Assembly (NCBI RefSeq): GCF_036365525.1
Contig: NC_090404.1
Span: 6,386,001 to 6,450,000 of the forward strand
DNA: 64,000 nt
Direction of reading: 5' to 3'
Source: Heterodontus francisci
Taxonomy: Eukaryota
Shown: positions 7,225 through 63,078 of the stretch, one piece after another
Layout of the letters: the number at the start of each line of letters is the position of its first letter
Position numbering within the stretch: position 1 is the first letter of the stretch
Translations under genes and position numbers: made by a program
The notes under the pieces: model-generated
What the model was told of the DNA's origin: nothing
The model's input: the letters and a program-made list of their open reading frames with translations, nothing else
Databases searched by the model: none

Positions 7225-8515
7225 CTGTCTGCCTGTCTATCTATCTATGTATCTATCTATCTATGTATCTATCTATCTATTACAGCGTTATGATGTGATG
7301 CACAGATCCTCCAGTGAACTGTTCTTACCAACAGGGTGTCTGAGACGCTGGATGTATTTCCTTTCCTGAGATGGGAACAATTCACAGTTTCACAACTGAA
7401 AAAAATAAAATTGATTTCAATATTGTTGCTGGGTAGATATGTTTATGAGTAGGCCTCATTGACAATTTTAAGGGTTTGAAGTTGGCTTGCAGCCAAGCGG
7501 TCAGTAATGAGGAAACAGATCTTTGATTTACTGCACAGAACCCGCAGATGCTTCCGGTAAATAACATTGGGTCTTTGAGCCTCCCTGACTGCACACGGCT
7601 GGGTTCCTGCCAAATACTGTGTGGGGCAAATTAGCGTGAATATGAAAGGACAAAAACAGGATTTAACCACTTGAACATTAACTTATTCAGCAGTGATCTT
7701 ACGAAGCTAAAAGAAAGCATTTTACGAGGTATCATATCTAAAGAATGTTTTTCTGTAAATTCAGTTATCATATTATGGTAAAATGGGAGCGCCAAATAAT
7801 AAATTGACCAACGTGATCATTAAAAATAATTCTGGATAATTAAGATCATTTATTTAGTACTGCATGAAGTTCTCGAGAGAACATTTAATGACACCACCTC
7901 CTCCCCCCGCCACCACCCACCTCCCCCCCCCCCCACCGCCCCCCCCCCCCCCCCACCCCCCACCCGCCCCCAAACACACACACAGCGAAATGAGATATTG
8001 GGAATAACAAAATGAATAAATAGGTGGAATTGTCTTGAACCCGCTGCATTTCTTTGAATATTCTCACACTGCTGGGAATCACATTCAAACTAAATACTCC
8101 TTTATTGATAACAGCTGCATACTATACAGTTTAATTTATTATAATTTGAATTGCTTAACAAGCCCTTTCATTGCCAGGCTACCACTGGGTAGAGAATTTC
8201 CCAGTTTACGATCCGATTCCACAGCAAGTAAAGCGTCTATTCTTGTGATATTCAGTAGCACAGCGCTAAGTACTGATATATTGCGTTCCTGATACTAGTG
8301 TATGGTACACAGTCTTTCGCTAATAAAGTTAGCTGCAACGATTTGGAGCCGGGGGATAGATTTGCTCATAGCGATATCAGTTCGGATTCACTAACTCCTC
8401 TAGCTGATCTGAATTTTACATGTCACTCCTTAATTATCAGGCAAGCGGACTTCTTTTGCAAATAATTTTCAAAGGCTGGCTTAGGATCACAAAATCAGGA
8501 GCAATTTGTGAAATT

Positions 8516-8551
<36 letters not shown>

Positions 8552-8555
8552 GAGA
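7225..8555. repeat. Simple repeats upstream of VH: (TCTA)n 7235-7280, poly-C 7895-7971, (AG)n 8519-8555
   Basis: Seen directly. Confidence 0.9.
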
Positions 8556-9010
8556 CACTTGTATAATGTGAGGCGTTTATATTCACTCTGCTCCTAAATC
8601 ATGTAACTACAGCCATTCACACTGCAAATAGAATCACTTTACTAATATCCCGCATTTAGTTGCACAAATTGATAACAATTCAAATTATCGGGGGTACTTT
8701 ATTGATATAAATTGAAGGAATAGATCGACCGAGATGGATTAACATCTACTCGCAGTCACTTTAGACCCTGGTAACATAACTTAATCGAAGAGATTCACAT
8801 GCCCTGTGAAGAGGTGAGGGAATAAAGTGATTTGATTCGCAGCCCACAATGCAATTATTTATTATTGAACAAATATTCAACTGCAATATCTCCATTTACG
8901 ACCAAGTAACACATTGCACTGAAATCATACCGTCATATGCGTATCCACGGATACAGATGAAAAGTCACATTTAATAATATCCCAATGTAATGATATGAGT
9001 CCATTCTGTT

Positions 9011-9108
9011 AGTGATGTGGAAGGTGGGACGTGGATCCAGTAACCGCCTCTATCAGGGAACCTATAGGCGGCCCCTGTAACCTCGCCCCTTCTGCCGGGT
9101 ATTTAAAT
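9011..9108 (+). promoter_or_regulatory. VH promoter: TATA-like box and TCR-decamer-like motif, no canonical octamer seen
   Basis: TATTTAAAT at 9100-9108; AGTGATGTGG at 9011-9020 is 8/10 to the TCR-V decamer AGTGATGTCA; no ATGCAAAT/ATTTGCAT seen in the proximal region. Confidence 0.55.
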
Positions 9109-9198
9109 GCCGGTCACTGGGACCGCAATGGAGCAGTCCGGGAGCGGGTTTGCTCAGTGAGTTCTTACCAGAACCATTTTCCCCGAATTGTCAGAAGG

Positions 9199-9244
9199 AT
9201 GAGGTCGGCGATTTCTCTCAGTCTGTTACTTGTTTTCTTGTCCT
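9199..9244 (+). CDS. IgH leader exon (MRSAISLSLLLVFLS)
   Basis: ATG at 9199, hydrophobic signal peptide, phase-1 donor T|GTGAGT at 9245; about 90 bp downstream of TATTTAAAT. Confidence 0.95.
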
Positions 9245-9371
9245 GTGAGTCGTTTTTATTGTCCGAGTCTCTCACTGTTACCGTCTCAGTGTTAGTCTCT
9301 CTCTGGAATGTTACAGAGACAGGAATCATTTCACCAGGATTAATCCTCGGGGTTTTTGATAGTTTTTACAG

Positions 9372-9746
9372 GTGTCCATTCGGATATCGTGTTGACTCAG
9401 CCAGAGGCAGAGACGGGGAAACCCGGCGGCTCCCTCAGACTGACCTGTAAAACCAGCGGGTTTGATCTTGGCAGCCATTGGATCTGCTGGGTCCGACAGG
9501 TTCCCGGGCAGGAGCTGGAGTGGTTGGTTGGCTACTATGGTTTGTTCAGCAGCTTCTACGCCCCAGGGATTAAAGATCGATTTACTGCGTCCAAAGACAC
9601 TTCAAACAACATCTTCACTTTGGACATGAAGAACCTGAAGACAGAAGACACCGCCATCTATTTCTGTGTAAGACAGTACTCCGGGGGTGCTGGGCCGTAC
9701 GACCTGGGCTACTGGGGACAAGGGACCAGGGTGACGGTGACTGCAG
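9372..9746 (+). CDS. Germline-joined, in-frame IgH V-D-J exon
   Basis: Acceptor TTTTTACAG. Translates (C)[50 protein letters not shown]...[34 protein letters not shown], then donor G|GTAAGA at 9747. No heptamer/nonamer between FR3 and FR4. Confidence 0.95.
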
Positions 9747-9859
9747 GTAAGAAACATGCATTTATTCAGTAACTGTTTTATTTGTGCTTTTCTTTTATAT
9801 TTCAATTTATTTTAATGATACATTCGTTCACTGAAATGTGGGCTCAATGCATTCTATAT

Positions 9860-11060
9860 TGAGAGTTGTTGCAATGCTTTGTGATTTTACTGGAAAGAGA
9901 TTAGAGATTTGAATGGCTTCTCCACAAACGGTGCTGTTGAGGGATTCAGTTACTGTTTGTGATTTGGTGTTTATTTGCTGATGAGACTGTGTGTTTGGGG
10001 TACTTTAAATACCCAACTGTTGTGAAACTGTTGGACGCTTCTGCAATGTTTAATCTTGCTGACATCTAGTTGCTGCAGGTTTTCTGATCGAACACAAACA
10101 ATAAGTGTTTAAATATGTTCGAAATAAGATTCTCGGCAGAAAGCTTCAGCAGTCAAAATAGCCTGATGATATTTCGATCTATTTTTATTTGTGGTAATTA
10201 AATTGTCATCTATCAATCTACTGCTCACGAACGCTCATATGTAATACAAGATTTGATATAATTAAGAACTACATAAGTAACAAACTTGCAGATTTACCTT
10301 AGTATAATCTCACTTATTAAAATGTTGTGATATCAGCCAATATCAATGAAATATGCTATAGTATCAACGTTAATTTATTAGACATGTTCTCTGTACTAAC
10401 AGTTCTGCTACCATCATGTTATACATTGAGCAACTTCAGTAACTAACTTGTTCCAAGACAGCCCGGCTCGATGGATTTTGTCGTGAGATCTTTTGCAATG
10501 TTTCATTGGAATCGTTTGAAATTTTTTGTATAATTAAGCTGCTTGTCCATGAAATGTACTGTGGCAGGATTCAGTCCGTCAGTGATGTGATTTGGTGTTT
10601 ATCTGCTGAAGAGAGTGTGTTACTTTAAATAAGTAAAATTTGTGAAACAGTTTGGCATTTCTGCATTGTTTAATCTCGAGGGGCTGCAGGTTTTCCAATT
10701 GAATGGAAACATTCTACGTGTTTAAAACTGTTTGAAAGCCGATTGTAGCCGGAAAACTGGCAGGTTTCCGAAATGAGAAAAAGCATTCAAAGATATTTCA
10801 AGGTATTTTTTTTAAAACAATTTACGTGCTAATTGCAGATTAAACTATTAAGCCATAGTTTGCAACGTTCATTCAGTACGTGAAATGTTACTGCAATTAC
10901 AAACTGCATAATTAGCAAGTTTACAGATTGAAGAGTAAAGTTAATGTAATTCAAACAATTATAATGTGACAATATCTCCTCTTATAAACCAAATATGCTT
11001 CAGTATAAACATCGATTCATTATTTATTAATCGCCTTTCACAATTCTGGTATGCCACGTG
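9860..11060 (+). repeat. Diverged tandem duplication (period about 625 bp) at the start of the J-C intron
   Basis: GGATTCAGT...GTGATTTGGTGTTTAT-TGCTGA-GAGA...TACTTTAAATA...TGTGAAAC...GCTGCAGGTTTT at about 9942 and 10567; AAATATGCT--AGTAT at about 10349 and 10991. Confidence 0.75.
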
Positions 11061-12919
11061 CACAATTATTGTGACCAGAAAATGTTATGGGCTGGAGACA
11101 ATTTTTAATTATGCTTGAAATTATTTCAATAAGCATACTTATTCCAGTGCTGTGTTCTGTTAAGTTTGATAAGTGGTTTTGAATTAATTGTTACATTCCT
11201 GATTAAAACAGGTGAATTACAGCTTGTATTTACTTACAACGTCAATAGGCGTTGTAAATTGCAGTTTCTCAATGTAATATATCTGTCTGGTTATTACATT
11301 CTTTGCGTGCAGCCCAAACCATGTTCTTCCTTCAATGTCATTGTTGTTGGATAGTGAGATAATTATCACTAATCTAATATTAACTATTTCCTAATACAAG
11401 AAGTCGCTGGCTGTTAAAGAATTGTTCATATGATTTTATTCAAATTGAAGAAACTTGCAGACTGCGTAAGATGAGAGCCAAATAAATAACACGTTGAAAT
11501 TTAAGCAGATTCAATTAATTACAAAAGGTTGATGTTAGTTTTGAATTCAATAACAGCACCTGTTAATTAGGATATAATTAAAGGCAATGAACAGGTTATA
11601 CCTGATAGTTATTCTTCATGCTTATTAAATATTAAAGTGATCAGAAAAATCTCGGCTACATTTGCTCATTAAGTTTCAAATGTCGCAGATGATCTGATGA
11701 ACTGTTCTCGTCCACCTTTACAGTGATCATTTAGGAGCTTCTTTCAATAAAAAAAACACAATATATTTAACCATTAATTTACAGGGATTGTGTGAACCAC
11801 GAGAGTGAAATATAAAAACATTGTGTGATTAAATAGTGGCAGCACAGTTACTGATCGCAAAATGCTCGGGTGTTTTTGATTTTTTTTCTTATATGGTTAA
11901 GATTTATGACAATATTTAAACACGAGAGTCCTGTTTTCACAAACAGGCGATGTTACAGCCCATGGTCAGTTCGTCACCCCGGCCAGGCCTGGAACTATTT
12001 AAAGTATTCCACTCCTACATCTATCGTGTGAAATACTTGCTGAGAATAGACCGAGTTTGATATATCAACTCATTCAGATACATGTGTAGTTTACAAGTTT
12101 GCAGAGAGAAAACAGGGTGGGACTAGAAATTATAGTTCATTTCAAATTATTGAACTGTGGTTCGATTTAAGTAAAAGTAATATATTTGTCTGAATGTTTT
12201 CATCTATCAATATGACGTTTATTATTTAATATTGATTAAGTGTCATAATAATTTAATTAAAACCCTATTATTTCACAAGGTTCCAGGCAGAAACTAGTCT
12301 TGAATTAATATTAACTAATGATTAAATATCAGCTAACATGAATATTAACCGAGAATATAATAGTGTTCATTAATTAAACATAAATGACCTCCCACAATTC
12401 AGTAGTATATTTACCTGTATTCCAATGAGTGCAAAATCTCAAGGGTCAGAGAGAAATTTGAATTATGTCTGAAAACGATTTAGAGAACAATACATTTCTT
12501 ACTCAGCTGCACTCAGTTCGAAATGGTGTCACCACAGATTTTAATGAATTAACTGTGTGTATTGGTTCAATTTTTTTGGAACACTTAATGATAAAATTGT
12601 GTCAAACCAAGTGGATAATCGGTTTGTAAGGTAAATGTCTCCTGATTTTCTAAATTTTTACTCTGTCACTGAGCTGCTGTTAAGGACATCAAATTTTCCT
12701 GAAAGTGAATTGTTTTGATGTACTCATTTTAAGGGAAACTATGTCTTTCATGTTTTTAAGATTGCGAACAGACAGGGAGAAACAGTTGGAAGTCGAAGGG
12801 AGCTTTCGAAATGACTTTCAGTTAAATTTCAAAGAGCTTACAGACTTGCAGTGGTCACACTTTGACAGTTGATAAATTAGAATCAAGCAGCTTCATTGAA
12901 ATTGACAGATTGAATAGCC

Positions 12920-13280
12920 TGGACTTGAGGGCATGTCCTACGAAGAAAGATTGAGGGTGCTAGGGCTTTTCTCATTGGAGCGAAGAAGGATGAGAGGTGA
13001 CTTGATAGAGGGGTACAAGATGATGAGAGGCATAGAGAGAGTGGATAGCCACAGACTTTTTCCCAGGGTGGAAAGGGCTATCACCAGGGGGCATAATTGG
13101 AGGAAGGTTTCGGGGAGATGTCAGAGGTAGGTTCTTTACACAGAGAGTGGTGGGTGCGTGGATTGCGCTGCCAGCGGTGGTAGTAGAAGCAAATACATTA
13201 GGGCATTTAAGCGACTCTTGGATAGGTACATGGATGATAATAGAATGAAAGGTAGGTAGTTAGTTTGATCTTAAAGTAGG
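12920..13280 (+). mobile_element. CR1 3' fragment in J-C intron
   Basis: [25 protein letters not shown] motif. Confidence 0.85.
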
Positions 13281-15190
13281 GTGGTCACAAAGCTTAATTC
13301 TTTCCAATCAGAAAAGCGTTAGTTCACCGTTTCCTTCTGCTTCCTATACCTTGGCAGGTTACCACCATCCCTTTAATCCATGCACTTCTATTTTCCGAAT
13401 GTTCTCTTATGTATTATGTTTTCTAATGCCATTTGAAAGCTCATATGTCCAACTTTTGCGCCACCATCATCGACAATCTCTCGGTGAGCGAGCTTTCAAT
13501 ATCCGACCAATAAGCCTCAAGTGTTTGCATTATCCACAGAAACCAGAGATGAGAGTTGACTATGTCAGCAATAAACACTTCATTATTTTTTGTCCTTCCT
13601 TGCATGGAACCCAATGATATTCACTCGATGTATAATGTGTAAGTGATGTCAATATCAGATATTTATAGAAGAAACCTGTCCTGATGTTCACATTATGGTC
13701 GGTGCAAGCAGCAAGAAGATAGGAATATGGGATTAGTGTAGGATTAGTGTAAACGGGTGGTCGATGGTCGGCACAGACTCGGTGGGCCGAAGGGCCTGTT
13801 TCAGTGCTGTATCTCTAAACTAAACTAAAAAAGAGGTGTCTGTAACGACACAGTCAGCAACACCAGTTCTCACTGGTGAGAGATGTCAAGATATTTGCAA
13901 AATTGACTGGAACATTTGCAGAACATCAATCCAAATGTCTGATCTTTAGGAATCGGATTTGATTCGGATTATTAAAGTATTTAGAGGTAGAAACAAACTC
14001 GGGAGAGATCCATTCAGTAAAATAAGATAGAATACCAATCACAATCCTCAAGTACTGAGAAGGAAAGTGATAGCATAGAGTCAGTGCCGAGTCATCGGAA
14101 GCTTTACTTCCAGAAACTAGGTTGTGTAAAAACTCCTCTCTGAGATCTGTGTCCTAAAAGATTCTGTCCACATTTTAAAGAAAACTTCAACTATTTATTG
14201 TAAAAGATCTTTATTGTCGAGGGGACGTAGAAGTTGAAAATGAAGTCTGGTAGAGGTGTTTTGAATAATGAATGGTTTTATACAGAAATACAGAAACCAA
14301 TTTCCCCAGATCAATGAGTTGGTCTGTAGAGGGCACTGATTTAAAATCAGCATCAAAAGAATGAAGGAAGAGGGTATGAATCTACTTTTCTACACAGGGG
14401 GTTGTTAGGATCTGGGATGTCCTATCAGAAAGAGGGTTGTAAACAGAATCTAAAATAGCTGGATAAAATGGAATTTTTGAAAAGAAGATTAGGAGTTGGA
14501 AATCTGTGGGATCGCTGGAGTGATCTTTCACAGGCCTGATGGACCGAATGGCCTCCTTCACTGCTATCATTTCCATTATTTTACAGTCTGGGGACATTAA
14601 TAACCCAAAGAAGCTCAAATGCCACTGTAGGTTTTTATTGGAAAATAGTTGAATTACTTTGCCCGATAGTCAGGTTTCAAGTTCGAAGCTCATTTTAAAG
14701 CACGCATTGCGATGGCACTTTGTAAAATTAGTCACTATTTTTTAGGGGAATTGTGTTGGGGAAGAGATGGAGGGGTGGGGAAACACAGCAGTCTATTTGC
14801 AGAGAGCAAATTTCCAAAAACTGCAATTAATAAAAGTCGAGTGTTCTTTTTTGGACAAAAGGATGCTGGTTTTGGAATAAATACTGACCGAAATGGTGGG
14901 AAATTTCTACTTCCAGTTTAATCCAATGAAAGATACTTTATTGAGATGACTTCAAAAGGCTCTTCATTTTGTAATGTGACAGGTCCTGAAAGAGAGGTGT
15001 GTTCCTGACCAGGGGACCCGACAGGTGATGATCAGCAAATTATGGAAATGCTAGAAACTCAAATGCGGATGAAGGTTTTAAGCAGAAAATATTGGAATCA
15101 GTTTCTAGCTGGAGTTAAATTCCGAGTTGTCTGGTTATTTAATAAGCATGAATCACAGTCTAACTTGTTCAATCTGCCATTCTTTCCCAG

Positions 15191-15487
15191 CGACACCGTC
15201 TCCCCCAACCCTTTATGGCCTGTGCTCCTGTGAACAACCCAACTCCGGCGGCTCCGTGGCCTACGGCTGTTTGGCGATGGACTACATCCCCGAAATCACC
15301 AGCGTTTCCTGGAAGAAAGATCAAGAGCTAATCACCACTGGATTAAAGACTTACCCGTCAGTGCTGAACAAGAAGGGAACCTACACCCTGAGCAGCCAGT
15401 TAACCATCACCGAGTCAGAGGTGGGAAGCAGCAAAATCTACTGCGAGGTTCGACGTGGAGAGTCAGTCTGGATCAAAGAAATTCCAG
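15191..15487 (+). CDS. IGHM: IgM CH1 exon
   Basis: TTTCCCAG acceptor; (A)[15 protein letters not shown]...GCLAMDY...VSWKK...[17 protein letters not shown]; G|GTTAGT donor; 297 nt, phase 1/1. Confidence 0.95.
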
Positions 15488-16060: not shown

Positions 16061-16378
16061 ATTGTCAAGGTGACATCGTCCATCCAACTGTTACCCTCAC
16101 CCAGATTTCCAGTGAAGAAATCAGAAGCAGCAGATTTGCAACTGTCGTGTGTTCAATCATCGATTTCCATCCAGAGTCATTAACCGTGAGTTGGTTGAAG
16201 GATGGACAACCCATGGATTCGGGCTTCGTCACCTCTGCCGCTTGTGAGGTGAACGGGAACTTCTCGGCGACCAGTCGGCTGACAGTCCCCGCTGGGGAAT
16301 GGTTCAACAACACGGTCTATACCTGCCAGGTCTCCCATCAAGGGGTCACCCAAAGCCGAAACATCACCGGATCTCAGG
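16061..16378 (+). CDS. IGHM: IgM CH2 exon
   Basis: TTCTTGAAG acceptor; (D)[10 protein letters not shown]...[20 protein letters not shown]...[20 protein letters not shown]; G|GTAAGA donor; 318 nt. Confidence 0.95.
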
Positions 16379-19154: not shown

Positions 19155-19463
19155 TTCCTTGTTCCTGCAATGATCCAGTAATTAAACTACTGCCACCATC
19201 AATAGAACAGGTCTTACTGGAGGCGACGGTGACCTTAACCTGCGTCGTGTCTAATGCTCCTTATGGCGTCAACGTGTCCTGGACCCAAGAAAAGAAGCCT
19301 TTGAAATCAAAGATTGCCGTGCAACCCGGAGAGGATCCCGACAGCGTGATCAGCACCGTAAACATCTCGACGCAAGACTGGCTGAGTGGGGCTGAGTTCT
19401 ACTGTGTGGTGAGCCATCAGGATCTGCCGACTCCTCTCAGAGATTCCATCCACAAGGAAAAAG
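19155..19463 (+). CDS. IGHM: IgM CH3 exon
   Basis: TTTTACAG acceptor; (V)[31 protein letters not shown]...VSW...[22 protein letters not shown]; G|GTGAGC donor; 309 nt. Confidence 0.95.
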
Positions 19464-19948: not shown

Positions 19949-20337
19949 TTAAAGATATTCGAGAACCGTCCGTGTCTGTCCTCCTGCCCCCGGCAGAAGA
20001 TGTCTCCGCTCAGAGGTTCCTCTACCTCACCTGCTTAGTGAGAGGTTTCTCCCCCCGAGAGATCTTCGTCAAGTGGACCATCAATGACAAGTCGGTGAAT
20101 CCCGGAAACTACAAGAACACCGAGGTGATGGCGGAGAACGACAATAGCTCCTTCTTCATCTACAGCCTGTTATCCATTGCAGCGGAGGAGTGGGCCAGCG
20201 GCGCTTCTTACTCCTGTGTGGTGGGACATGAAGTGATCCCCTTGAAGATCATCAACAGAACAGTTAATAAATCCAGTGGTAAACCGAGTTTTGTGAACAT
20301 TTCCCTTGCACTGTTGGACACTGTCAATTTATGTTAA
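19949..20337 (+). CDS. IGHM: IgM CH4 exon plus secretory tailpiece (internal membrane-form donor after 20278)
   Basis: TTCTGCAG acceptor; (V)[14 protein letters not shown]...[17 protein letters not shown]...YSCVVGHE...[26 protein letters not shown]; G|GTAAAC donor at 20279. Spliced secreted ORF is 1734 nt (577 aa). Confidence 0.95.
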
Positions 20338-20378: not shown

Positions 20379-20477
20379 AATAAAGATCTTTTCTTTCAAT
20401 CACGATTTAAATACACAACCGCTCAATTAATTTTGCTTACCACATTTTCTAAGTGTAGCTCTATTGACTTAAATAAA
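20379..20477 (+). terminator. Secretory-form polyadenylation signals
   Basis: AATAAA at 20379-20384 and 20472-20477, just after the tailpiece stop. Confidence 0.75.
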
Positions 20478-22981: not shown

Positions 22982-23109
22982 ATTCATCAGACCACATCTG
23001 GATTGAAGACAATGAGGAAGAGAGCGGCAACATCTGGACAACCGCTTCCATATTCATCATCCTGTTCTTCCTGAACATTTTCTATAGTGCTGCCGTCACT
23101 CTGGTGAAG
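22982..23109 (+). CDS. IGHM: IgM TM1 exon
   Basis: CCATAG acceptor; (D)SSDHIWIEDNEEESGNIWTTASIFIILFFLNIFYSAAVTLVK; donor GTGGGA at 23110; antigen-receptor TM (CART) motif. Not in the ORF track. Confidence 0.93.
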
Positions 23110-23254: not shown

Positions 23255-23263
23255 GTCAAGTGA
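23255..23263 (+). CDS. IGHM: IgM TM2 exon (VK-stop)
   Basis: TTTTACAG|GTC AAG TGA completes the KVK cytoplasmic tail. Membrane ORF is 1812 nt (603 aa). Confidence 0.9.
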   Translation, partial: VK

Positions 23264-38790: not shown

Positions 38791-41627
38791 ATATCTTCTA
38801 TCTATCTCTTACAATATTATGATGTGCTGGACAGATCCTTCAGTGGACTATTGCTACTAACAGGATTTCTGAGACACTGGATATATTTCCTTTCGTGAGA
38901 GATGGGAGCAGTTCACATAGTTCCACAAATGATAAAATAAAATTGCCTCCACTATTGTTACTGGGTAGTGTTGTTTATGAATGGACCTCATTGACAATGT
39001 TAAGGATTTGAAGTTGCCTTGCAGCCAAGCGGTAAGTAATGAGGAAACAGATCTTTGATTTACTGCACAGACCCCCAGATGCTTCCTGCGAATAACATTG
39101 GGTGCTCGAACCTCCCTGACTGCAGTCTGCTGGGTTGCTGCCAAATACTATGTGGGGCAAATTAGCGTGAATATGAATGTACAGCGATAGGGTTTAACCA
39201 TTTGAACGTTAATTTATTCAGTAGCGCTCTTATAAAAAAGGAAGCATTTTAGGTGGTATCACATCTAAAGAATGATTTTCGATAAATTCGGTGTTCCTAT
39301 CATGATAAAATGGGATCGCGAAATAATAAATTGACACACGTGACAATTAAATATAGTTCTGGATAATTAAGACCATTTACTTCGGACTGTATGAAGTCCT
39401 AAAGAGAGATTTGAATAACCCATATGCACACCGTAATGAGATAAGTGGTAATCGCTTTTGAATTAATTATTATATTCCTGATTAAAACAGGTGAATGACA
39501 GCTTGTATTTACTTATAACTTCAATAGGAATTGTAAATTGCAGTTTGTCAGTCTAATATATCTGTCCGGTTATTACATTCTTTGTGTGCAGCCCAAATCA
39601 TGTTCTTCCTTCAATGTCATTTGTTGTTCGATAGTGAGATAATTATCACTAATCTAAAATTAACCATTTTCCTCATACAAGAAGTCTTTGGCAGTCAAAG
39701 AAAAGTTCATATGGTTTTATTTAAATATTTGCAGACTGCGCAAGGCGAAAGATAGACAAATAGCACCTTGAAATTCAAGCAGATTCAGTTAATTACAAAA
39801 GGTTAATTTTAGTTTTGAATTCAATAAAAAAATATCCTGTCTCTCATAGCTGTGATGTACACAGGATAGAATTATAGACAAAGAACAGATTATACCTGAA
39901 AGTTATGCTTAATTCTTATTAAGTATTAAATTGATCAACAAAATCTCGGCTACATTTGCTCATTAAGTTTCAAATGTCGCAGATGATCTGAAAGAATTGT
40001 TCTCGTCCAATTTTACAGTGATCATTTTGGAGCTTCTTTCAAAAAAAAACACAATATATTTAACAATTAATTTACAGGGATTGTGTGAATTACGGGAGTA
40101 AAATAGAAAAACATTGTGTGATTAAATAGAGGCAGCACTGTTCCTGATCGCAAACTGTCCGGATGTTTTTGCTTTTTTCTTATGTAGTTAAGATTTATGA
40201 CAATATTTAAACAGGAGAGAGCTGCTTTCACAAACAGGCGATGTTACAGCCCATGGACAGTTAGTGAGATGTGACCCCGGCCAGGCTTGAAACTATTTAA
40301 AATATTCCGCTCCTAAATCCATCATGTGAAATACTCGCTGAGAATAGACGGACTTTGTGACATATCAACACATTCAGATACATGCGCAGTTTACAAGTTT
40401 GTGGATAGAAAGCCGGGAGGGAGTAGAAATTATTGTCCATTTTAAATTATTGAACTGCGATTCGATTTCAGTAAAAGTAATATATTTGTCTGAATGTTTT
40501 CATCTATTGATATGACGTTTATTGTTCAATTTTGATTACGTGTCATAATAATTTAATTAAAACCCCATAATTTCACAAGGTGCCAGGCAGAAACTGGTTT
40601 TGAATTAATGTTAACTATTGTTCACACTGTATAAAATCAGCTAACATGAATATTAACCTAGAATATAATAGCAGTGCTAATTCATTAAACATCAATGATG
40701 AAACATCATTAAACAACAACAATTGACTAGTATAATTGCCTGGATTCCAGTGAGAGCAAAATCTCAAGGGCCGGAGAGAAGTTTGAATTATGTCTAAAAA
40801 TGATTTAGAGAACGAAATATTTCTTACTCAGCTGTTCTTCAGCTCGATAAGATGTCACCACAGATATTAATGAATTAACTGTGTGTATTGCTTCAATGTT
40901 TTGGGGTAAAATTTAATTCTGAAATTGTTTGCAAAGTAAATGTCTCCTGATTTGCTAAATTCTTACTCTGTCACTGAGTTCCTATTACGGATATCAAATT
41001 TTCCTGAAAGTGAATTGTTTTGATGTACTCATTTTAAGGGAAACTATCTCTTACATGTTTTTAAGATTGCAAACAGACAGGGAGTAACAGTTGGAGGTCG
41101 AAGGGAGTTTTGGAAATGACTATCAGTTTAATTTTAAAGAGCTTACAGCCTTGGAGTGGTCACAATTTGACAATTGATAAATTAGAATCAAACAGCTTCA
41201 TTGAAATTGACAGATTGAACAGGTCTATCTGCTGAGAGCCCGATTGTTGCACCGTTTGTGCCTGTTCTGTTTCTATGCGCCTGCTCACTGTTTCAGGACA
41301 AGGACAACTCCGTGCAGTTTGTAAACAGTTTGGTTCGTTCTCCTGCATTTCAAGGAGTGCAACTTGATCCATTTATCTAAGAGACTTGTACCTGTCAGAA
41401 ACCTAAAATTTTGACTTTAAGTTTGATGAAGCGCCTCAGCAATGAGATCAGTATTCCAGTCTGTGACAATCCGAAATAACAGTTCAGAGACACGGCAGAC
41501 AGACTGTAGAAGGAGATTTGGTCCGTTTGTAATCAGTAATGTACCTCCCTTGGGAGTGTTTGATTCGGCAATGTAGAGGAAGCTGCAAGTCCTGGGACCG
41601 TTTGATGAGGACAGTGTAGAAGGAGAA

Positions 41628-51444: not shown

Positions 51445-51718
51445 TCGTATTGTATTTTAATATACCACAGCGCCTAACAGCCGAGCGGTGTTAACGGTGA
51501 CAGTGGTGGAGACTTTCTCACTGTCCACAGATATTTTAAACCTTCCCTCAACTTTCTCATCTCTGAATGTGGAGACTGGGGAACTTCATCGGAGAACTGC
51601 CGGTACCAGAGTACAAGGACACCTGTAGTGAAAGTAACATTGTGATGAAGTGAAATGGTTTGTCCTTCGGTTCCTCGATGCACCGACATCGGGAATGTCT
51701 CTGAGTGACAGGGAACAG
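51445..51718 (-). pseudogene. TCR alpha/delta-type V pseudogene
   Basis: TTTGACAG acceptor; ...GTEGQTISLHHNVTFTTGVLVLWYRQFSDEVPQ, frameshift, VEGRFKISVDSEKVSTTVTVNTARLLGAVVY*; degenerate heptamer CACGCTG (51438-51444). Both Cys lost. Confidence 0.75.
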
Positions 51719-51900: not shown

Positions 51901-52036
51901 NNNNNNNNNNNNNNNNNNNNNNNNNNNNNNNNNNNNNNNNNNNNNNNNNNNNNNNNNNNNNNNNNNNNNNNNNNNNNNNNNNNNNNNNNNNNNNNNNNNN
52001 NNNNNNNNNNNNNNNNNNNNNNNNNNNNNNNNNNNN
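51901..52036. other. Assembly gap (N run)
   Basis: 136 N. Confidence 1.
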
Positions 52037-52453: not shown

Positions 52454-52656
52454 CTGTTAATAGAAACATGAAAAACTCTCAATAACTTTACTTTCCTACC
52501 CAGCCTTCTTAATTCGGAATAGCCGCATGAAAATAAAATAGTGAGTGTTCCAATTGGATGTATCGATATTTCAGGATGTTGGCTTTGAAATCACAGCATC
52601 TGTCTCATGCGTCACATTCAGACCCAGACTTGGATACATTTTGTGTTTGGCTGTAG

Positions 52657-52925
52657 GAGCATATGGCGCAGACTCAGTGTCCCTGGATCAGTCTGAGTTG
52701 ACGATTCCGGAAGAACATTCCGTAATATTCAGCTACAGTTACTCCACATTTGACAGCTTTCTCTACTTTTATCGGTGCATCAATATTCCGGGTAAGCTCG
52801 GAGATATTTACTGAGGAGGTAGAACTCGGGGCAGGTAAATAATTCTCAAGATTTCCCAGTCCGGTTCTCTTTTCATTTGGACAAGGATAAAGACAGCAAT
52901 ACAACTGTTTGATATATAAACCTGG
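52657..52925 (+). pseudogene. TCR alpha/delta-type V pseudogene, 3'-degraded
   Basis: CTGTAG acceptor; GAYGADSVSLDQSELTIPEEHSVIFSYSYSTFDSFLYFY, then frameshift and stop, ...DFPVRFSFHLDKDKDS; no YYC or RSS. Confidence 0.75.
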
Positions 52926-53014: not shown

Positions 53015-53053
53015 GGTTTTTGTGCAGGGTCTTGGCTTTTATCTGACGCTGTG
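53015..53053 (-). promoter_or_regulatory. 23-RSS
   Basis: CACAGCG + 23 nt + ACAAAAACC (consensus nonamer). Confidence 0.95.
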
Positions 53054-53594
53054 CCTCACTGCACAGTAATAGAGCGCCCCGTTTTCCACACTCAGGTCGC
53101 TTATATTGAGATAACCGCTCCTTTTAGACTTATCAGCAGCCGCCAGATATTGTCCTGAGATTTCGTTTTCCTTCACTGCAACTAATTTGGTAATAATCCA
53201 TCTTGGAGGCTGTGCCGGTTTCTGCCGATACCATTGCATGTAGTCAATATTCAGGGTTGTATATTCGCAAACTATCCGCACCGAACTCCCTTCTGACACG
53301 GTTATTTTCGCCGGAGACTGAGTTACTGGATCTGCAAATAGTCCGCCTGTGAACGTAGAGGAATAAAGAACAGGAGGTTAAATAGGAGCGGTGTAAAATT
53401 GTGACTATCAGTGTAAGTATATGTAATCTTCCATCTACCCGGCTGTCCATAATATGGATCTTTCTGATCGCAAATTACATTAAACGCGAGAACAAACTGT
53501 TAGCAGAAATCTGATAACCTGCTTTATTCAATCTAATCCAATACTTACTGTCCAACACAGCAGCCAGTATTATCAGAAACATGTCTGACTGCAT
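53054..53594 (-). CDS. Intact TCR alpha/delta-type V gene (leader 53594-53549; V exon 53346-53054)
   Basis: MQSDMFLIILAAVLD|GTAAGT...CACAG|SGLFADPVTQSPAKITVSEGSSVRIVCEYTTLNIDYMQWYRQKPAQPPRWII...LNISDLSVENGALYYCAVR; canonical Cys/Trp/Cys. Confidence 0.92.
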
Positions 53595-54864: not shown

Positions 54865-55345
54865 ATGGGGAACCGTCTCTCACCGCTTCTCATCATTATA
54901 TCACTTCTCAGTAAAAATCCATTCTCCCCCTGACTGCTGTAACCCAGATATTATTGTTAGTAAAATAATAGTGATGGTGGTGATGATGGTTATATTGATC
55001 AATATGAAGCTGATGCTGATTGTTGCTGTTACTATTTTGTACTCTAAACTGGAAGAAACAGTGGAACAGCTGGTTCCTGAAATACCGGATGAAGAAGAAA
55101 GTAAGGTCACACTGACCTGCACCTTGAAAACAGGCGCTTATAATCCTTATTTGTACTGGTACGGTCAGCATCCTGGGCAGCCTCCACACTCCATACTTCG
55201 TCTCATTGGAAGGAATGTGCACGTGAACACCGATATCACTGATCAGTTTTCTTCTACGTTTAATAAAACTGCCAAGATTACCGAGCCAACGATCAGCAGC
55301 ACCCTGATTTCTGACAGCGCCGTGTGTCTCTGTGCCATGAGCCCC
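54865..55345 (+). pseudogene. TCR-type V with open frame but defective signals
   Basis: Leader MGNRLSPLLIIISLL with a 15-bp deletion over the donor relative to the 59005 paralog; no AG acceptor before SKLEETVEQ...VTLTCTL...YLYWYGQHPGQPP...DSAVCLCAMS; heptamer degraded (CGCACTG), no nonamer. Confidence 0.8.
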
Positions 55346-57899
55346 GCACTGAGAGTTCCAGTGAGTGCTCAGCAGAGGGCGCTCTCCAACCGATAAACAA
55401 GCAATAATTCAAACCCCACAGTGAGAATCACAGAGACCTTTTAAAAACTGCAACAAATTATAAACCTCAACAACAAGTGAGGTCCACTTGCGCAGTTGTC
55501 TTGGTTTGTGATTATAACTTGCATTTATCATAAAAAATTAGCTTTACAATTCGATGTGTGACGCCTGATTCACCTTTTGTCTTTCGATTCCCTTTCCCTG
55601 CCTACTTATTCCTTATTACACTCTGTCTCCACACTTTACGCATAATTGCATATATTTCCTTCTTCCACGCTTTACTTTACAGATATTAACCTTGGCTAAT
55701 TCTCTGTACCTTAATTCAGAACCACTTCAACCCAACTTCCCATATAGTCAATAAAATAAAAGCAAAATACTGCGGATGCTGAAAATCTGAAATAAAAACA
55801 GGAAATGCTGGAAATACTCAGCAGGTCTGGAGAGAGGAACACAGTTATCGTTTGAGGTCTGTTACCTTTGATCATTCAAGGTTGTTCCCTATCACAGACC
55901 TTCCCTTTTGTTCTTTACATCCTCCCACCTTTAGCTGCCTCTGTACTTGCACCTGTGACGGTTTCCAGTTCTGATGAAGGGTTACTGACCTGAAACGTTA
56001 TCTCTGTTTCTTTCTCCAAATATGCATTTTATATGCTGAATATTTCCAGAATTTTCTATGTTGATCTTATACAAGGTACAGTTCCTGCCTTGTTCCAGTT
56101 AATAAGATCATTAATTTTGCTTAACCATCTGGAGATGTCCGAACTTCCTCCCCCAATATGGCTCCTGTACGATTTGATAACATAGGGGTGTTTTAAAGTG
56201 GGAACAGACTTGTCAGCACAACGTTTGTTATGAATCGACTTTATTGAGTTAAAGGTAGGAAAAGTTTGTTAAGTTCTCAACTAAAGCATAGTCACCAACT
56301 CAGGCAGTAATTAACAATCTAACACAGATACTACCCGTATTAGAGACTGAACGGCAGAGTGCACGACTTGCAGCTTTGGGCCCTCAAGCTTTTGGCTCTC
56401 TCTCTCTCTCTCTCGTAGTTTCTCTTGTCTCTTGTTGTTTATGTTTTTGCTTTTTTTGCCACGCAGTAGCAAGGACAGGGCTCATTTTATCCTGGCAGCT
56501 TTCCAGTTAACCCTCCCCTCTCCCAATCGGTGATTAATCTTGTATTAAAGGATGCCTTTCATAACCAACCAAGGATCGTTTTGTGATGGTTGCCAACCTT
56601 TCGGATTTATGCAAGCAGCACACAAAGGGGTCTTTGTGTTGACTACCGTATCTCAAGCTTTTACTTCTCGAGGATGCCAGATCTCACTACGAGACAAATC
56701 TACGCAGAAGCTGTTTTCACTGTCTGTTCTCACAGTCTCACACATTTGCTGCAAGTAAGAATTTTAAAACTTGACATAATCTCCCAGAATCCCGCTGCCT
56801 TGACATCTTGTCGAGACTGTGCCCTGTTCCCTAAGTTTTTCCACTTTATCATACTATTAAAAAAAAATGTCAGTTTATGATAATAAGTCATTTTTTAGTT
56901 TATAATAGCTAGATTTTAACAATTGGCATGCTAGTTAGTAACTTTTAGCAACCAAATAGACAGTTTGCAAGACAGACTGTCCTGATAGACAGCGAGCATC
57001 TAAAAAGAGATCTCTCAGTTAATTTAAACTGAAAGAAGCGAATTTGGATTGTTTATTTTTTACCTCTCAAAATTCTAAAAGTGAAGCCAGATTGATTCTT
57101 TTGAAAGTGGTTGCGAATTGTTGATCTGTTGTGTTCATCACTGGAAAGACTAAGAGTTTGCAACTTCAAATGCTGAACTGAATTACTAAATTCCTTTCGT
57201 CGGATTCATTGGACCCTGAAAGATTGCGAGTGGACTTTGAATCAGAGAAATGTTCGTCAGGAAACATTGCCCTTAAACGAAACAGTGGGTTTATTTCTCT
57301 TCCATTCTATCCGGAAATTTATTTCACACATTCATCACTTTCTGATGCGTAAGACGGATTTCTCGATATAGTCCTATAATTACCTTTTATACTTTGGATC
57401 CGTGTCCCCCAGTTTGACTCAACAGTTCAATTTAATGTCATATTGCGTGATGCATTTTCAATACATGAATTATCTGATATTTCTCTCGATGTCATTGCAG
57501 TCCGGCACTGCGATAGGGTGCTGGTTGAATCACTTGCACATCCCCCAGCAGCGGGCCACAAGGGTTGGGTTCTGTCTCCTTGGGGTGGATTCTTTCAAAA
57601 AAAGGAGGAAGGAATCGCTGTGATAGAATGTGAGGACAGCGAAACCGTTTCTCACAAACGGATCCTACATTGGTTGATAGGTAAATTGGCCATTAGAAAT
57701 TGCCCCTAGTGTAGGTAGGTGGTAGGGAAAATATAAGGACAGGTGGGGATGTGGTAGAAATATGGAATTAGTGTAGGCTTTGTCTAAATGGGTGGTTGAT
57801 GGTCAGCGTGGACTCGGTGGACCGAAGGGCCTGTTTCAGTGCTGTATCTCTAAAAAAAATGATAACACTGCTGACCCCACTGTTTCCGTTTGCAGCTCT

Positions 57900-59004: not shown

Positions 59005-59556
59005 ATGCGGAACTGTATCTATCTATTCTTCATAATTATATCACTTCTCCGTAAGTATGTTTCCAGTAAAAATCCATTCTCCGCTGACTGCTGTAACCCA
59101 CATATTATTGTTTGTTAAAAGGATGGTGATGATGGTGAAAGTAGCTTAAACTCACTTCGCATTTTATTTTGTTTTCCGTCAAGTTTTGAACCGGAATATT
59201 AAACATCCGTGTGTTTGATCCTTTCCTGTTTGAATATGTTTTTCAGATCTGAATCATGGAGATTCAGTCACTCAGCCGCTGTCCTCAGGTGTTAAGACAG
59301 AAGGACAAGCGGTGACTTTAATCTGTACCTATAATACTACACGGGGCGGCAGCTATAATTTGTACTGGTATCGGCAACACCCAGACACACAACCTGAGTT
59401 TATTCTGATTAAATACACAAGTGGTTCTGAAGATAAAGCAAAGTTTGCCAAAATCTGCTTCTCTGCACAACTCGACAGCTTGGCAGAATTCACCAACTTA
59501 ACCATCTCGGGGCTGCAGCTGACCGACACTGCAGTTTATTACTGCGCCCTGAGGTT
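59005..59556 (+). CDS. Open TCR alpha/delta-type V gene (leader 59005-59050; V exon 59247-59556)
   Basis: MRNCIYLFFIIISLL|GTAAGT...TTTCAG|HLNHGDSVTQPLSSGVKTEGQAVTLICTYNTTRGGSYNLYWYRQHPDTQPEFIL...LTISGLQLTDTAVYYCALR. Confidence 0.9.
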
Positions 59557-59595
59557 CACACTGATGGAAACCAGGTAAATCCTCGTAGATAAACT
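59557..59595 (+). promoter_or_regulatory. 23-RSS (weak)
   Basis: CACACTG + 23 nt + AGATAAACT (6/9 to ACAAAAACC). Confidence 0.8.
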
Positions 59596-60837: not shown

Positions 60838-61359
60838 ATGTTGGTTGTTACTTTGTATGGATTCCTCACAGCTGCAGCTCTTTTAACTGGTAAAGTTTAC
60901 AATTTACACAATCTTCCTCTTACAGGCATCATTGACATTCTTTTAGTTGCACTTTTTTTTCTCTATTTACAATGTGTTCCGGCCGCTGATGATATTAGTT
61001 AGAATAAAGTGATAATAAAAGCTTAAAGTTCTGTATTTCTAAATTTCTGCAGGTGTTAGTGGTGCAGACTCAGTCTCACAGGGGCCCGTTGCAGCGATGC
61101 AGTTTGATGGAGATTCGGTGACCATTAATTACAGCTATTCGACCACTGCTAATATATATTCCTTACAACTGTATCGTCAGGACTGGGATAAAGGCCCCAC
61201 ATTCCTCATCTCCATCCCTAACTACGGAGATGTTTCCAGAGCAGAGGGCGTGGGCAATCGGTTTTCCGCATCTCTCGACGCTTCGAAGAGTGAGGGGAAT
61301 TTCACCATCCGCGACCTGCGGCTGTCTGACAGCGCGATGTATTACTGCGGGCTCAGAGA
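60838..61359 (+). CDS. Open TCR alpha/delta-type V gene lacking first Cys and core Trp (leader 60838-60889; V exon 61053-61359)
   Basis: MLVVTLYGFLTAAALLT|GTAAAG...CTGCAG|GVSGADSVSQGPVAAMQFDGDSVTINYSYSTTANIYSLQLYRQDWDKGPTFLI...NRFSASLDASKSEGNFTIRDLRLSDSAMYYCGLR. Confidence 0.9.
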
Positions 61360-61398
61360 CACAGTGACAGGAACCAGAGATAGCCTCGTACAAAAACA
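61360..61398 (+). promoter_or_regulatory. 23-RSS
   Basis: CACAGTG + 23 nt + ACAAAAACA. Confidence 0.95.
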
Positions 61399-62561
61399 CT
61401 GCCTCGGTGTGACAAGGTGAAAGGAGAAGCGGGCAGAGTGGGGTGAAACGCAAAGTTTCAGTATTGATCACAGGGGAGTGTTAGTTTCAAAACAGCCAAA
61501 CCAACAAACTGTCCAACTAACAACACAGCACAGAAATAATGTTTATCATTAATATCATAATCTTGGAGTTGATTTCACAATAAGATGTCTGATTGGACTG
61601 TTCTTCCAATCTCGGTTTATTTCCTGGTCATCTTAAATTTTAATCTTAGTGAAACAAATATAAAACTAGTACTCATTATGCGCCAGAGTCGCAATCAGAC
61701 CCGGCGCTTCAGTTGGCTGGAAATGAACTGAAAAGGCGGGTTGCATTTAGTCACTACTTAATAGACCATAGAGCACAAACCTTCAGAACAATGAAATCTC
61801 CTCTGAGCTGGGAAGCCGTGAGACTCGGGGCCTAAACTGTGCCGGAAGCCCGGGGTGCTGACTGCACCAGTTGAGAATATTTTCTGAGTCTGTAACTCCG
61901 CAGTGCGAGAGCTCTGTCCGAGCAGAAATACAAAGCCCCGTCCCACTGCACCTACTGATCCAACCAATATCAAACAGAGAACAGCAATCTCTCCAGTAAC
62001 ACAGGGTAGGCAAGGCGGGGCAGAGCGAGAACAGCAAACGGAAGCTGTGGAAGGGGCTACAGCAGAAGCAAATCGAGTAAATTCAAAACTCTGTGGAAGG
62101 ACAGATGTTGCACGGCGCCGCTCAGCTGCACTGCGAGCTGATGCAGCGGAAATGGCGATGGTTCCATCTCTAGATACCTGTGGCTGAACAGCTACTGCTC
62201 ACTGATCAAGGGATTGGGCGCGAAAAGAAGGCATTGTACAACATCAGAAATAAAGAGGGATTTAGTCATTATTAATGTCGATATTTGCAACACATCCTTT
62301 CATACATGATGCAAAAGCTCTGAATCCGTTCATTCGAAACCAGATGGAACAGAATCCGCCAGCAGAGGGCGCCAGACGCAAGTATGGTCATTTTAAATTC
62401 AAGTGATGCCAGCGTCAGCGCCAATAGGAGTCGCAGTCTGAGTGAGGTCACAATGGGGCCGCCCCCTGTAGTGTGTGGGTGGAACAATGGGCTGAACAGG
62501 CCCCGGTTTACCTCTCCCCTTCTCAATCTCCGGCTCATTCCATTCCAATTCACTGCGAGGG

Positions 62562-63078
62562 ATTCAGTCAGGTGTGTTTCCAATAATACTGGCGCTCTAT
62601 TGGACAGTAAGTACTGAATTAGATTAGACAACAGAGGTTAGCGAATTGATCCAAAGAGTTTGTGAAGGAACATACTACAATTATCACTCAGAAATCTCCA
62701 TATAATGGTTAGCTAGGTAGATGGGAGTTTACACGTACTCACACAGGTAGACTTATGTTTGGGTCGATCCTGTTTAACAGCCTATTTCCGATCTTCACAG
62801 ACGGACTATGGGGAGAGAGACTCATGCAATTATCGGTGACAATACTGTGTCAGGACCGGGGAAAGGGAAGAGTTCCGTGCAATGAAATTGCGAATATTCA
62901 GCCGCGGTTTTCAACAACATGCAATGCTGTCGGTAGAAACCGGCACAGCCTCCATGCTAGATAACGAGCAAAGTAGCAGCACTGAAGGGAGACGAAATCT
63001 ATGTGTGAAGGACAGGACAGCCTCTTACTGTGCACGAACGGACAGCATCAAAAAAGACAAAGGCCTCATACAAAATGC
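62562..63078 (+). pseudogene. V pseudogene, inverted paralog of the 53054-53594 gene
   Basis: Leader with ATG changed to ATT, GTAAGT donor; exon from 62801 (DGLWG...CEYS...NNMQCCR*KPAQPP...SYCART) with stops and an FR3 deletion; decayed RSS GACAGCA + 22 nt + ACAAAATGC. Confidence 0.85.

Follow-up and report, generated by a model that had tools for sequence, protein, structure and literature searches.

A likely intact, RAG-joined germline IgM heavy chain gene in the horn shark Heterodontus francisci

Germline-joined heavy chain genes in sharks

Joined, partly joined and split heavy chain clusters are described as coexisting in the horned shark (PMC2193156, citing Kokubu 1988). Joined VDJ genes also make up many of the IgH genes reported in skates (PMC2435157), and one account puts the joined share of elasmobranch IgH loci at about half (PMC3308330). 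For the joined H chains of the horned shark, the account in PMC2193156 (citing Litman 1993) is that expression was not detected. Where joined genes are expressed, they are seen in early life (PMC2193156, PMC4279169). The joined L chains of the nurse shark are reported in pups and not in adults (PMC2193156), and nurse shark IgM1gj, which is described as a heavy chain without CH2 (PMC5192425, PMC4279169), is dominant in neonates (PMC4279169).

The window analyzed here is a 64,000-nucleotide stretch of H. francisci contig NC_090404.1, and it contains an IgM cluster in which V, D and J are already fused. This is likely an intact, RAG-joined germline IgM gene, and as such an additional copy of a kind known in sharks for decades. 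Our preferred explanation, with a probability of roughly 0.5, is that a complete four-domain IgM cluster was joined once by RAG in the germ cell of an ancestor and has been kept by selection, and that it is predicted to encode an IgM of fixed specificity that is minor and probably made early in life. Compared with the joined IgM clusters of the horned shark as they are described in PMC2193156, the gene has the same isotype, the same cluster layout and the same fused VDJ without recombination signal sequences (RSSs). It differs from those descriptions in being a whole copy with its C, tail and TM exons, in lying beside TCR V genes and in having a joint with a readable P-nucleotide mark.

Similar in kind is nurse shark IgM1gj (AAK07642.1, P0027), in which a VH joined completely in the germline is likewise carried on an IgM-type C region. 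That protein has no CH2 and is plentiful in neonates, whereas the horn shark gene retains CH2 and has a different CDR3. An orthologous relationship was considered and rejected, as a clade uniting the gene with AAK07642.1 has a p-AU of 0.00065 and CH2 is present at 16061-16378. In a C-region tree of 14 rows, the gene instead groups with two conventional IgMs of H. francisci (support 98/99), to which its CH1-CH4 domains are 84-93% identical. An FR4 arginine (9727-9730) is common to this gene and IgM1gj and occurs in only one of 27 comparators; judged from the sequences, its presence in two non-orthologous genes may be a case of convergence. In principle the gene would work like IgM1gj while standing outside that subclass.

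This CDR3 is absent among the 19 and 4 matches returned by protein searches, which were weak, and the peptide was not found in the literature searched, where subscription papers, older scans and sequence figures lay outside the reach of the search. The same literature searches returned no study of this locus. Whale shark, smooth-hound and sawshark gene models (P0006, P0012, P0054 and P0085) also carry V and J in one frame with unrelated CDR3s, and they are probably other germline-joined IgH genes. P0029, a further database entry listed under Aeromonas veronii as a hypothetical protein, matches shark IgM CH3-CH4 (84% identical to the CH4 described here); it is probably host contamination.

Structure of the cluster

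The fused VDJ exon occupies 9372..9746 on the + strand, as do the other exons of the cluster. Its bounds are exact, with an AG acceptor before 9372 and a GT donor after 9746, and it contains the end of the leader, the V domain (Pfam V-set, E = 1.2e-17), a junction of 15 residues between the FR3 cysteine and WGQG, and J. A single reading frame runs from FR3 through the 15 junction residues into WGQG. There is no RSS near the exon: a heptamer-plus-nonamer scan of all 64 kb (spacers of 11-13 and 21-24, at most three mismatches) gives four matches, none before 21117, and two of the four sit at TCR-type V genes. The coordinates, frame and scan therefore agree with the initial annotation, in which FR3 was said to run straight into a 15-residue junction and a WGQG-J with no RSS or intervening DNA. 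Because this VDJ is already joined in genomic DNA, the gene would make one fixed antibody.

The V domain is predicted to adopt a VH fold (pLDDT 74, TM score about 0.83 to an antibody VH), and the model supports that fold only, with CDR3 at low confidence (residues 101-106 under 50). At one position the domain has a cysteine found in none of 32 comparators, and the adjoining residue is isoleucine where all 32 have methionine. This extra cysteine (9485-9487) is unpaired, with no partner cysteine in the sequence. We also considered and rejected a V domain of the VHH type that functions free of a light chain. The hallmark of that type is change at four FR2 positions together with the loss of a usable CH1; here the FR2 hallmark is altered at one position only (G to E, also seen in 2 of the 32 comparators), and CH1 is intact.

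The leader exon (9199..9244) matches H. francisci IgM P0073 at 18 of 19 leader residues and is followed by a retained leader intron (9245-9371). A J-C intron (9747-15190) is also retained and leads to CH1 (15191..15487), which is identical to horn shark IgM at 92 of 99 amino acids. CH2 (16061..16378), the domain absent from nurse shark IgM1gj, is identical to P0073 at 95 of 106. The CH3 exon (19155..19463) is followed by CH4 with the secretory tail (19949..20337), and AATAAA signals lie 3' of this exon at 20379 and 20472. An internal donor after 20278 would serve the membrane form, whose remaining exons are TM1 (22982..23109) and TM2 (23255..23263, encoding VK-stop). All introns are GT-AG, and the secreted (577 aa) and membrane (603 aa) reading frames each have a terminal stop only. 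Over the whole cluster Pfam finds one V-set and four C1-set domains, and this count, with the grouping of the C region among IgMs, bears out the earlier assignment to a four-domain IgM. The presence of both introns, and a DNA contig that crosses from J into the intron, likewise support the view that the gene is not a retrocopy.

Two departures from the conventional sequence had been overlooked in the initial picture of an intact gene, which otherwise holds for its splice sites and its open secreted and membrane frames. One is the unpaired V cysteine. The other is in the secreted tail, which ends NLC-stop-stop in the assembly sequence (stop at 20335) and is one codon short of the NSCQ found in 16 of 16 secreted comparators. 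The change is most simply read as a Gln codon turned into a stop. The tail cysteine is kept, but it is terminal rather than penultimate as is typical of IgM, and an S to L change directly precedes it; in mammals the tailpiece cysteine is reported to bind J chain (PMC11729874). In TM1, two residues (T7I and S15N) differ from all five membrane comparators, and F8, L11, F12, Y18, S19, V22 and T23 of the conserved TM core are kept. These kept positions are the ones reported as change-intolerant in mouse, with the numbering carried over by eye from PMC11300204 and PMC9860311. The TM1 comparison covers two changes only and by itself is no evidence for function.

A TATA-like box (9100..9107) lies upstream of the leader, and no octamer was found upstream of it within 8500-9200. 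The RNA depth of paralogues begins within 9134-9169. Private changes in the promoter comprise a 1-nt deletion at 9085 and substitutions at 9130, 9131 and 9133, which lie beside this paralogue transcript start.

Downstream of the cluster, the window holds three TCR alpha/delta-type V exons: 53042-53377 on the - strand with a good 23-RSS (53053), 59234-59575 on the + strand with a degenerate RSS, and 61043-61417 on the + strand with a canonical 23-RSS (61360) and apparently without the first conserved cysteine. Decayed TCR-type V fragments lie at 51576-51704, 52647-52748, 55040-55393 and 62820-63044, and an assembly gap of 136 N occupies 51901-52036. Lying at 51-63 kb, and so 28-40 kb past the cluster, the TCR-type V exons fit the linkage of IgH with TCR alpha/delta described by Flajnik et al. 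in 2025 (PMC12227049), the main text of which makes no mention of Heterodontus. A joined VDJ without an RSS would be of no use in trans-rearrangement. The window also contains a relic duplicate of the cluster's non-coding DNA at 38797-41222, in which 38797-39407 matches 7268-7880 (83%) and 39456-41222 matches 11177-12917 (84%); no C exons follow it. Since these two flanking matches adjoin, 3.3 kb with the promoter, leader, V and J is missing from the relic.

The joint and its germline origin

The joint can be divided by comparison with the J segment of split paralogues, which is seen directly after its heptamer in 10 reads from another animal (run X9, agreement 0.97). The J part of the fused exon (9699..9746) differs from this split-cluster J at 3 of 48 nt (9702, 9704 and 9729), and all three differences change an amino acid. 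The split J is itself very uniform: at 9729, all 15 X9 reads and all eight contigs of DNA run X1 with another letter agree. Positions 9699-9709 match the first 11 nt of the split J at 9 of 11, the first three included, and the J is likely untrimmed. The 3 nt directly before it (9696-9698) are palindromic to the start of the split J, forming the reverse complement of its opening 3 nt in the split-paralogue J reads, and are likely P nucleotides. The J-start match would arise by chance at a level of about 0.04 and the palindrome at about 0.02, and both features were noticed post hoc.

An untrimmed coding end with a palindromic addition is the product of off-centre opening of a RAG hairpin. On this comparison, the joining probably left J untrimmed with a 3-nt palindrome in front of it, which would be such a P-nucleotide mark. 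The mechanism would then begin with RAG cleavage at RSSs in an ordinary V-D-D-J cluster in the germ cell of an ancestor, and the J hairpin would have opened off-centre to leave the three P nucleotides. The J-start match implies that YDLGY in the junction is J-derived. With 11 J-like nucleotides and a 3-nt palindrome accounted for, only 22 nt (9674..9695) are left for the V end, D and N, presumably in the order V end, D1, N and D2. The initial annotation had taken the GC-rich junction for D remnants plus N additions. The junction is indeed G+C-rich (72% over the 36 nt of 9674-9709), but it is not all D and N, as 11 nt are J-like (9/11) and 3 nt are P-like. A YSG-like motif occurs in 3 of 27 comparator CDR3s and is a hint only toward D sequence. 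Two metagenome scans for shark VH contigs gave 179 and 251 pattern matches, of which none was confirmed.

Lee et al. applied the same P mark to joined light chains and describe heavy-chain joints as hard to dissect (PMC2193156). Their nurse shark NS4 light chains (Lee et al. 2000, PMC2193156) resemble this gene in that the RSS is gone, a P region is present, the joint is in frame, and joined copies are mixed with split paralogues. The NS4 joints are from a light chain and reflect little TdT activity, whereas the heavy chain described here has about 22 unassigned G+C-rich nt in which D and N could lie.

A joint recorded in a genome assembly could also stem from somatic rearrangement in a B cell or from a chimeric assembly. 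Four of 13 listed read runs were aligned to 9026-10105 only, at 90% likeness. In X1, a 119-nt contig (9633-9751) spans the joint with no differences at a depth of 8.19, extending 41 nt on the V side and, on the other side, 42 nt across J and into the intron. A contig in unique intron sequence (9820-9950) has no differences either and a depth of 8.0 (8-9.45 in the bins at 9854-9925), while summed depth over the shared V and J parts is 200-1000, as many paralogues would give. The joint of one B-cell clone among polyclonal or non-lymphoid cells would fall far below single-copy depth, and a germline origin is therefore likely; taken together, these reads lead us to regard the joint as germline with high confidence. 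The initial annotation's link of such joining to RAG in germ cells gains from the single-copy depth of the junction together with the P-nucleotide palindrome.

The somatic or chimeric origin is nonetheless consistent with several observations. The X1 run represents unspecified tissue of one animal, possibly the source animal. The gene's own leader and CDR1 letters are absent from the X1 contigs aligned, where a filter removes some records, and the bin at 9494-9529 has a depth of 0. Its CDRs are also heavily changed, as they would be after hypermutation. The 24 reads of run X9, from the other animal, amount to a depth far below one per single-copy gene; none is listed over the joint, and they are too few to speak either way. 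Against such an origin, the junction contig is free of mismatches through V, J and intron at the depth of the unique intron, and private changes are found in CH1-CH4, the tail and TM as well. We consider it quite improbable.

Constraint, expression and role

Within the V exon, the changes against paralogues appear focused on the CDRs. In the CDR1 region (9458-9487), 10 of 30 nt and with them 5 of 10 codons depart from the consensus of expressed paralogues; in the CDR2 region (9527-9556) the figures are 11 of 30 nt (about 7 nt against the best-matching variants) and 7 of 10 codons. These counts were made by eye, and the reference is a consensus built from mutated transcripts rather than the ancestral sequence. 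The differences are mostly replacements, and they contrast with a divergence from paralogues of 7-8% in introns (8/112 in the proximal and 11/131 in the distal J-C intron).

Such a density could arise if a somatically joined and hypermutated VDJ had been written back into the germline, or if AID had acted on the joined gene in germ cells. CDR1 and CDR2 divergence is about four times the intron background, 8 of the 10 CDR1 changes stand in adjacent runs (by eye), and tandem changes are reported as a mark of shark hypermutation (PMC5931798). At this density, though, chance alone would place about half of the changes next to one another. Adjacent mismatches also make up 64 of 286 between the non-coding duplicates in the window, and neighboring changes are also found 5' of the transcript start (9130-9131). 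Divergence in the proximal J-C intron is not above that in the distal part, and both introns are present. We therefore rejected a hypermutation signature, as the adjacency of changes is not above chance, and find write-back or AID action the most remote of the origins discussed here.

Changes of this kind in the CDRs would suit a binding site that altered while its scaffold was preserved. With nine outgroups used to polarize the C-region changes, the gene has 16 derived changes against 17 in P0073 and 14 against 23 in P0072, and so shows no excess. The end branch of its C region (0.045) is similarly close to those of the two H. francisci IgMs (0.047 and 0.056). Relaxed selection had been suggested by a first count of private changes at conserved columns (14/335 against 5/330 and 4/262 in two horn shark IgMs; Fisher p = 0.016), and it was rejected when the rate tests and the tree gave no excess. 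That count was set aside because its panel is mostly nurse shark, contains a twin of one of the comparators and includes V and J.

Simulated neutral decay indicates how long open frames would last. The indel rate was taken from the non-coding duplicates in the window, which show 19 frameshifting gaps to 286 mismatches. In sets of 3000 runs, 13% kept every frame, stop and splice site intact at 1% divergence, 1.6% did so at 2% and 0/3000 at 4%. A gene joined by RAG in the germline but silent, as a neutral passenger or a young pseudogene, would thus have to be recently joined or silenced (under about 1.5% neutral divergence) for its frames to be open still. One join in three would be in frame by chance, and the nonsense-like change of the last codon, the unpaired cysteine and the promoter changes would all be expected of a silent copy. 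Yet 3 of 48 positions in J and 17-21 of 60 in the CDRs differ from paralogues with no frame-breaking lesion in 1.8 kb, the sole early stop is the last codon, and the C region shows no rate excess. The constraint could also predate the joining and stem from the cluster's split stage.

The expression evidence comes from two IgM-rich runs of one animal (X5 and X6), which are RNA-like in their leader-V joints and in reading from J into CH1; their RNA status is a guess, and they are of unspecified age and tissue. Letters at 9729 other than the paralogue majority account for 0.16% (X5) and 0.12% (X6) of depth, compared with 0.82% in DNA, and such letters at 9231 for 0.08% and 0.09%. These percentages are upper bounds for this gene; contigs drop rare variants, and summed contig depth is a poor measure of expression. 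Among the 16 pieces listed of about 25,000 aligned, none spans the junction, where an RNA counterpart of the 119-nt DNA contig would be expected to rank among the longest. There is thus a weak indication that the gene is rare or silent in the mature IgM repertoire. Silence would agree with these low ceilings of 0.08-0.16% and with the report that expression was not found for the horned shark's joined H chains (PMC2193156), although the RNA runs are of unspecified tissue and age. We regard a silent gene as a serious possibility that falls short of an even chance.

Under the preferred explanation of a selected, minor IgM, transcription in early B cells is possible because a joined gene needs no rearrangement, and its product could pair with a light chain there. 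CDR1, CDR2 and the start of J would have changed fast while the frameworks and C domains held. A bolder proposal is that an inherited antibody of fixed specificity arose here a second time, independently, in sharks. Positive selection would then have remodeled CDR1-3 to form a dedicated binding site with an aromatic CDR2 and a free cysteine in the pocket, the gene would be expressed in embryos or pups, and its shortened tail could alter polymer or J-chain assembly. We think this proposal unlikely.

Whether the horn shark's joined IgH genes have any role has been a question ever since their expression went undetected (PMC2193156). The gene described here lends itself well to a test, as it is complete and has private markers in its junction, at 9729 and 9231, and in the tail stop. 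The hairpin mark that can be read in this germline joint of a heavy chain supports the action of RAG in germ cells. If the gene is silent, it is one more among many such copies. If early expression and selection both prove true, then an adaptive receptor would have become an innate-like antibody more than once, in this case with CH2 retained.
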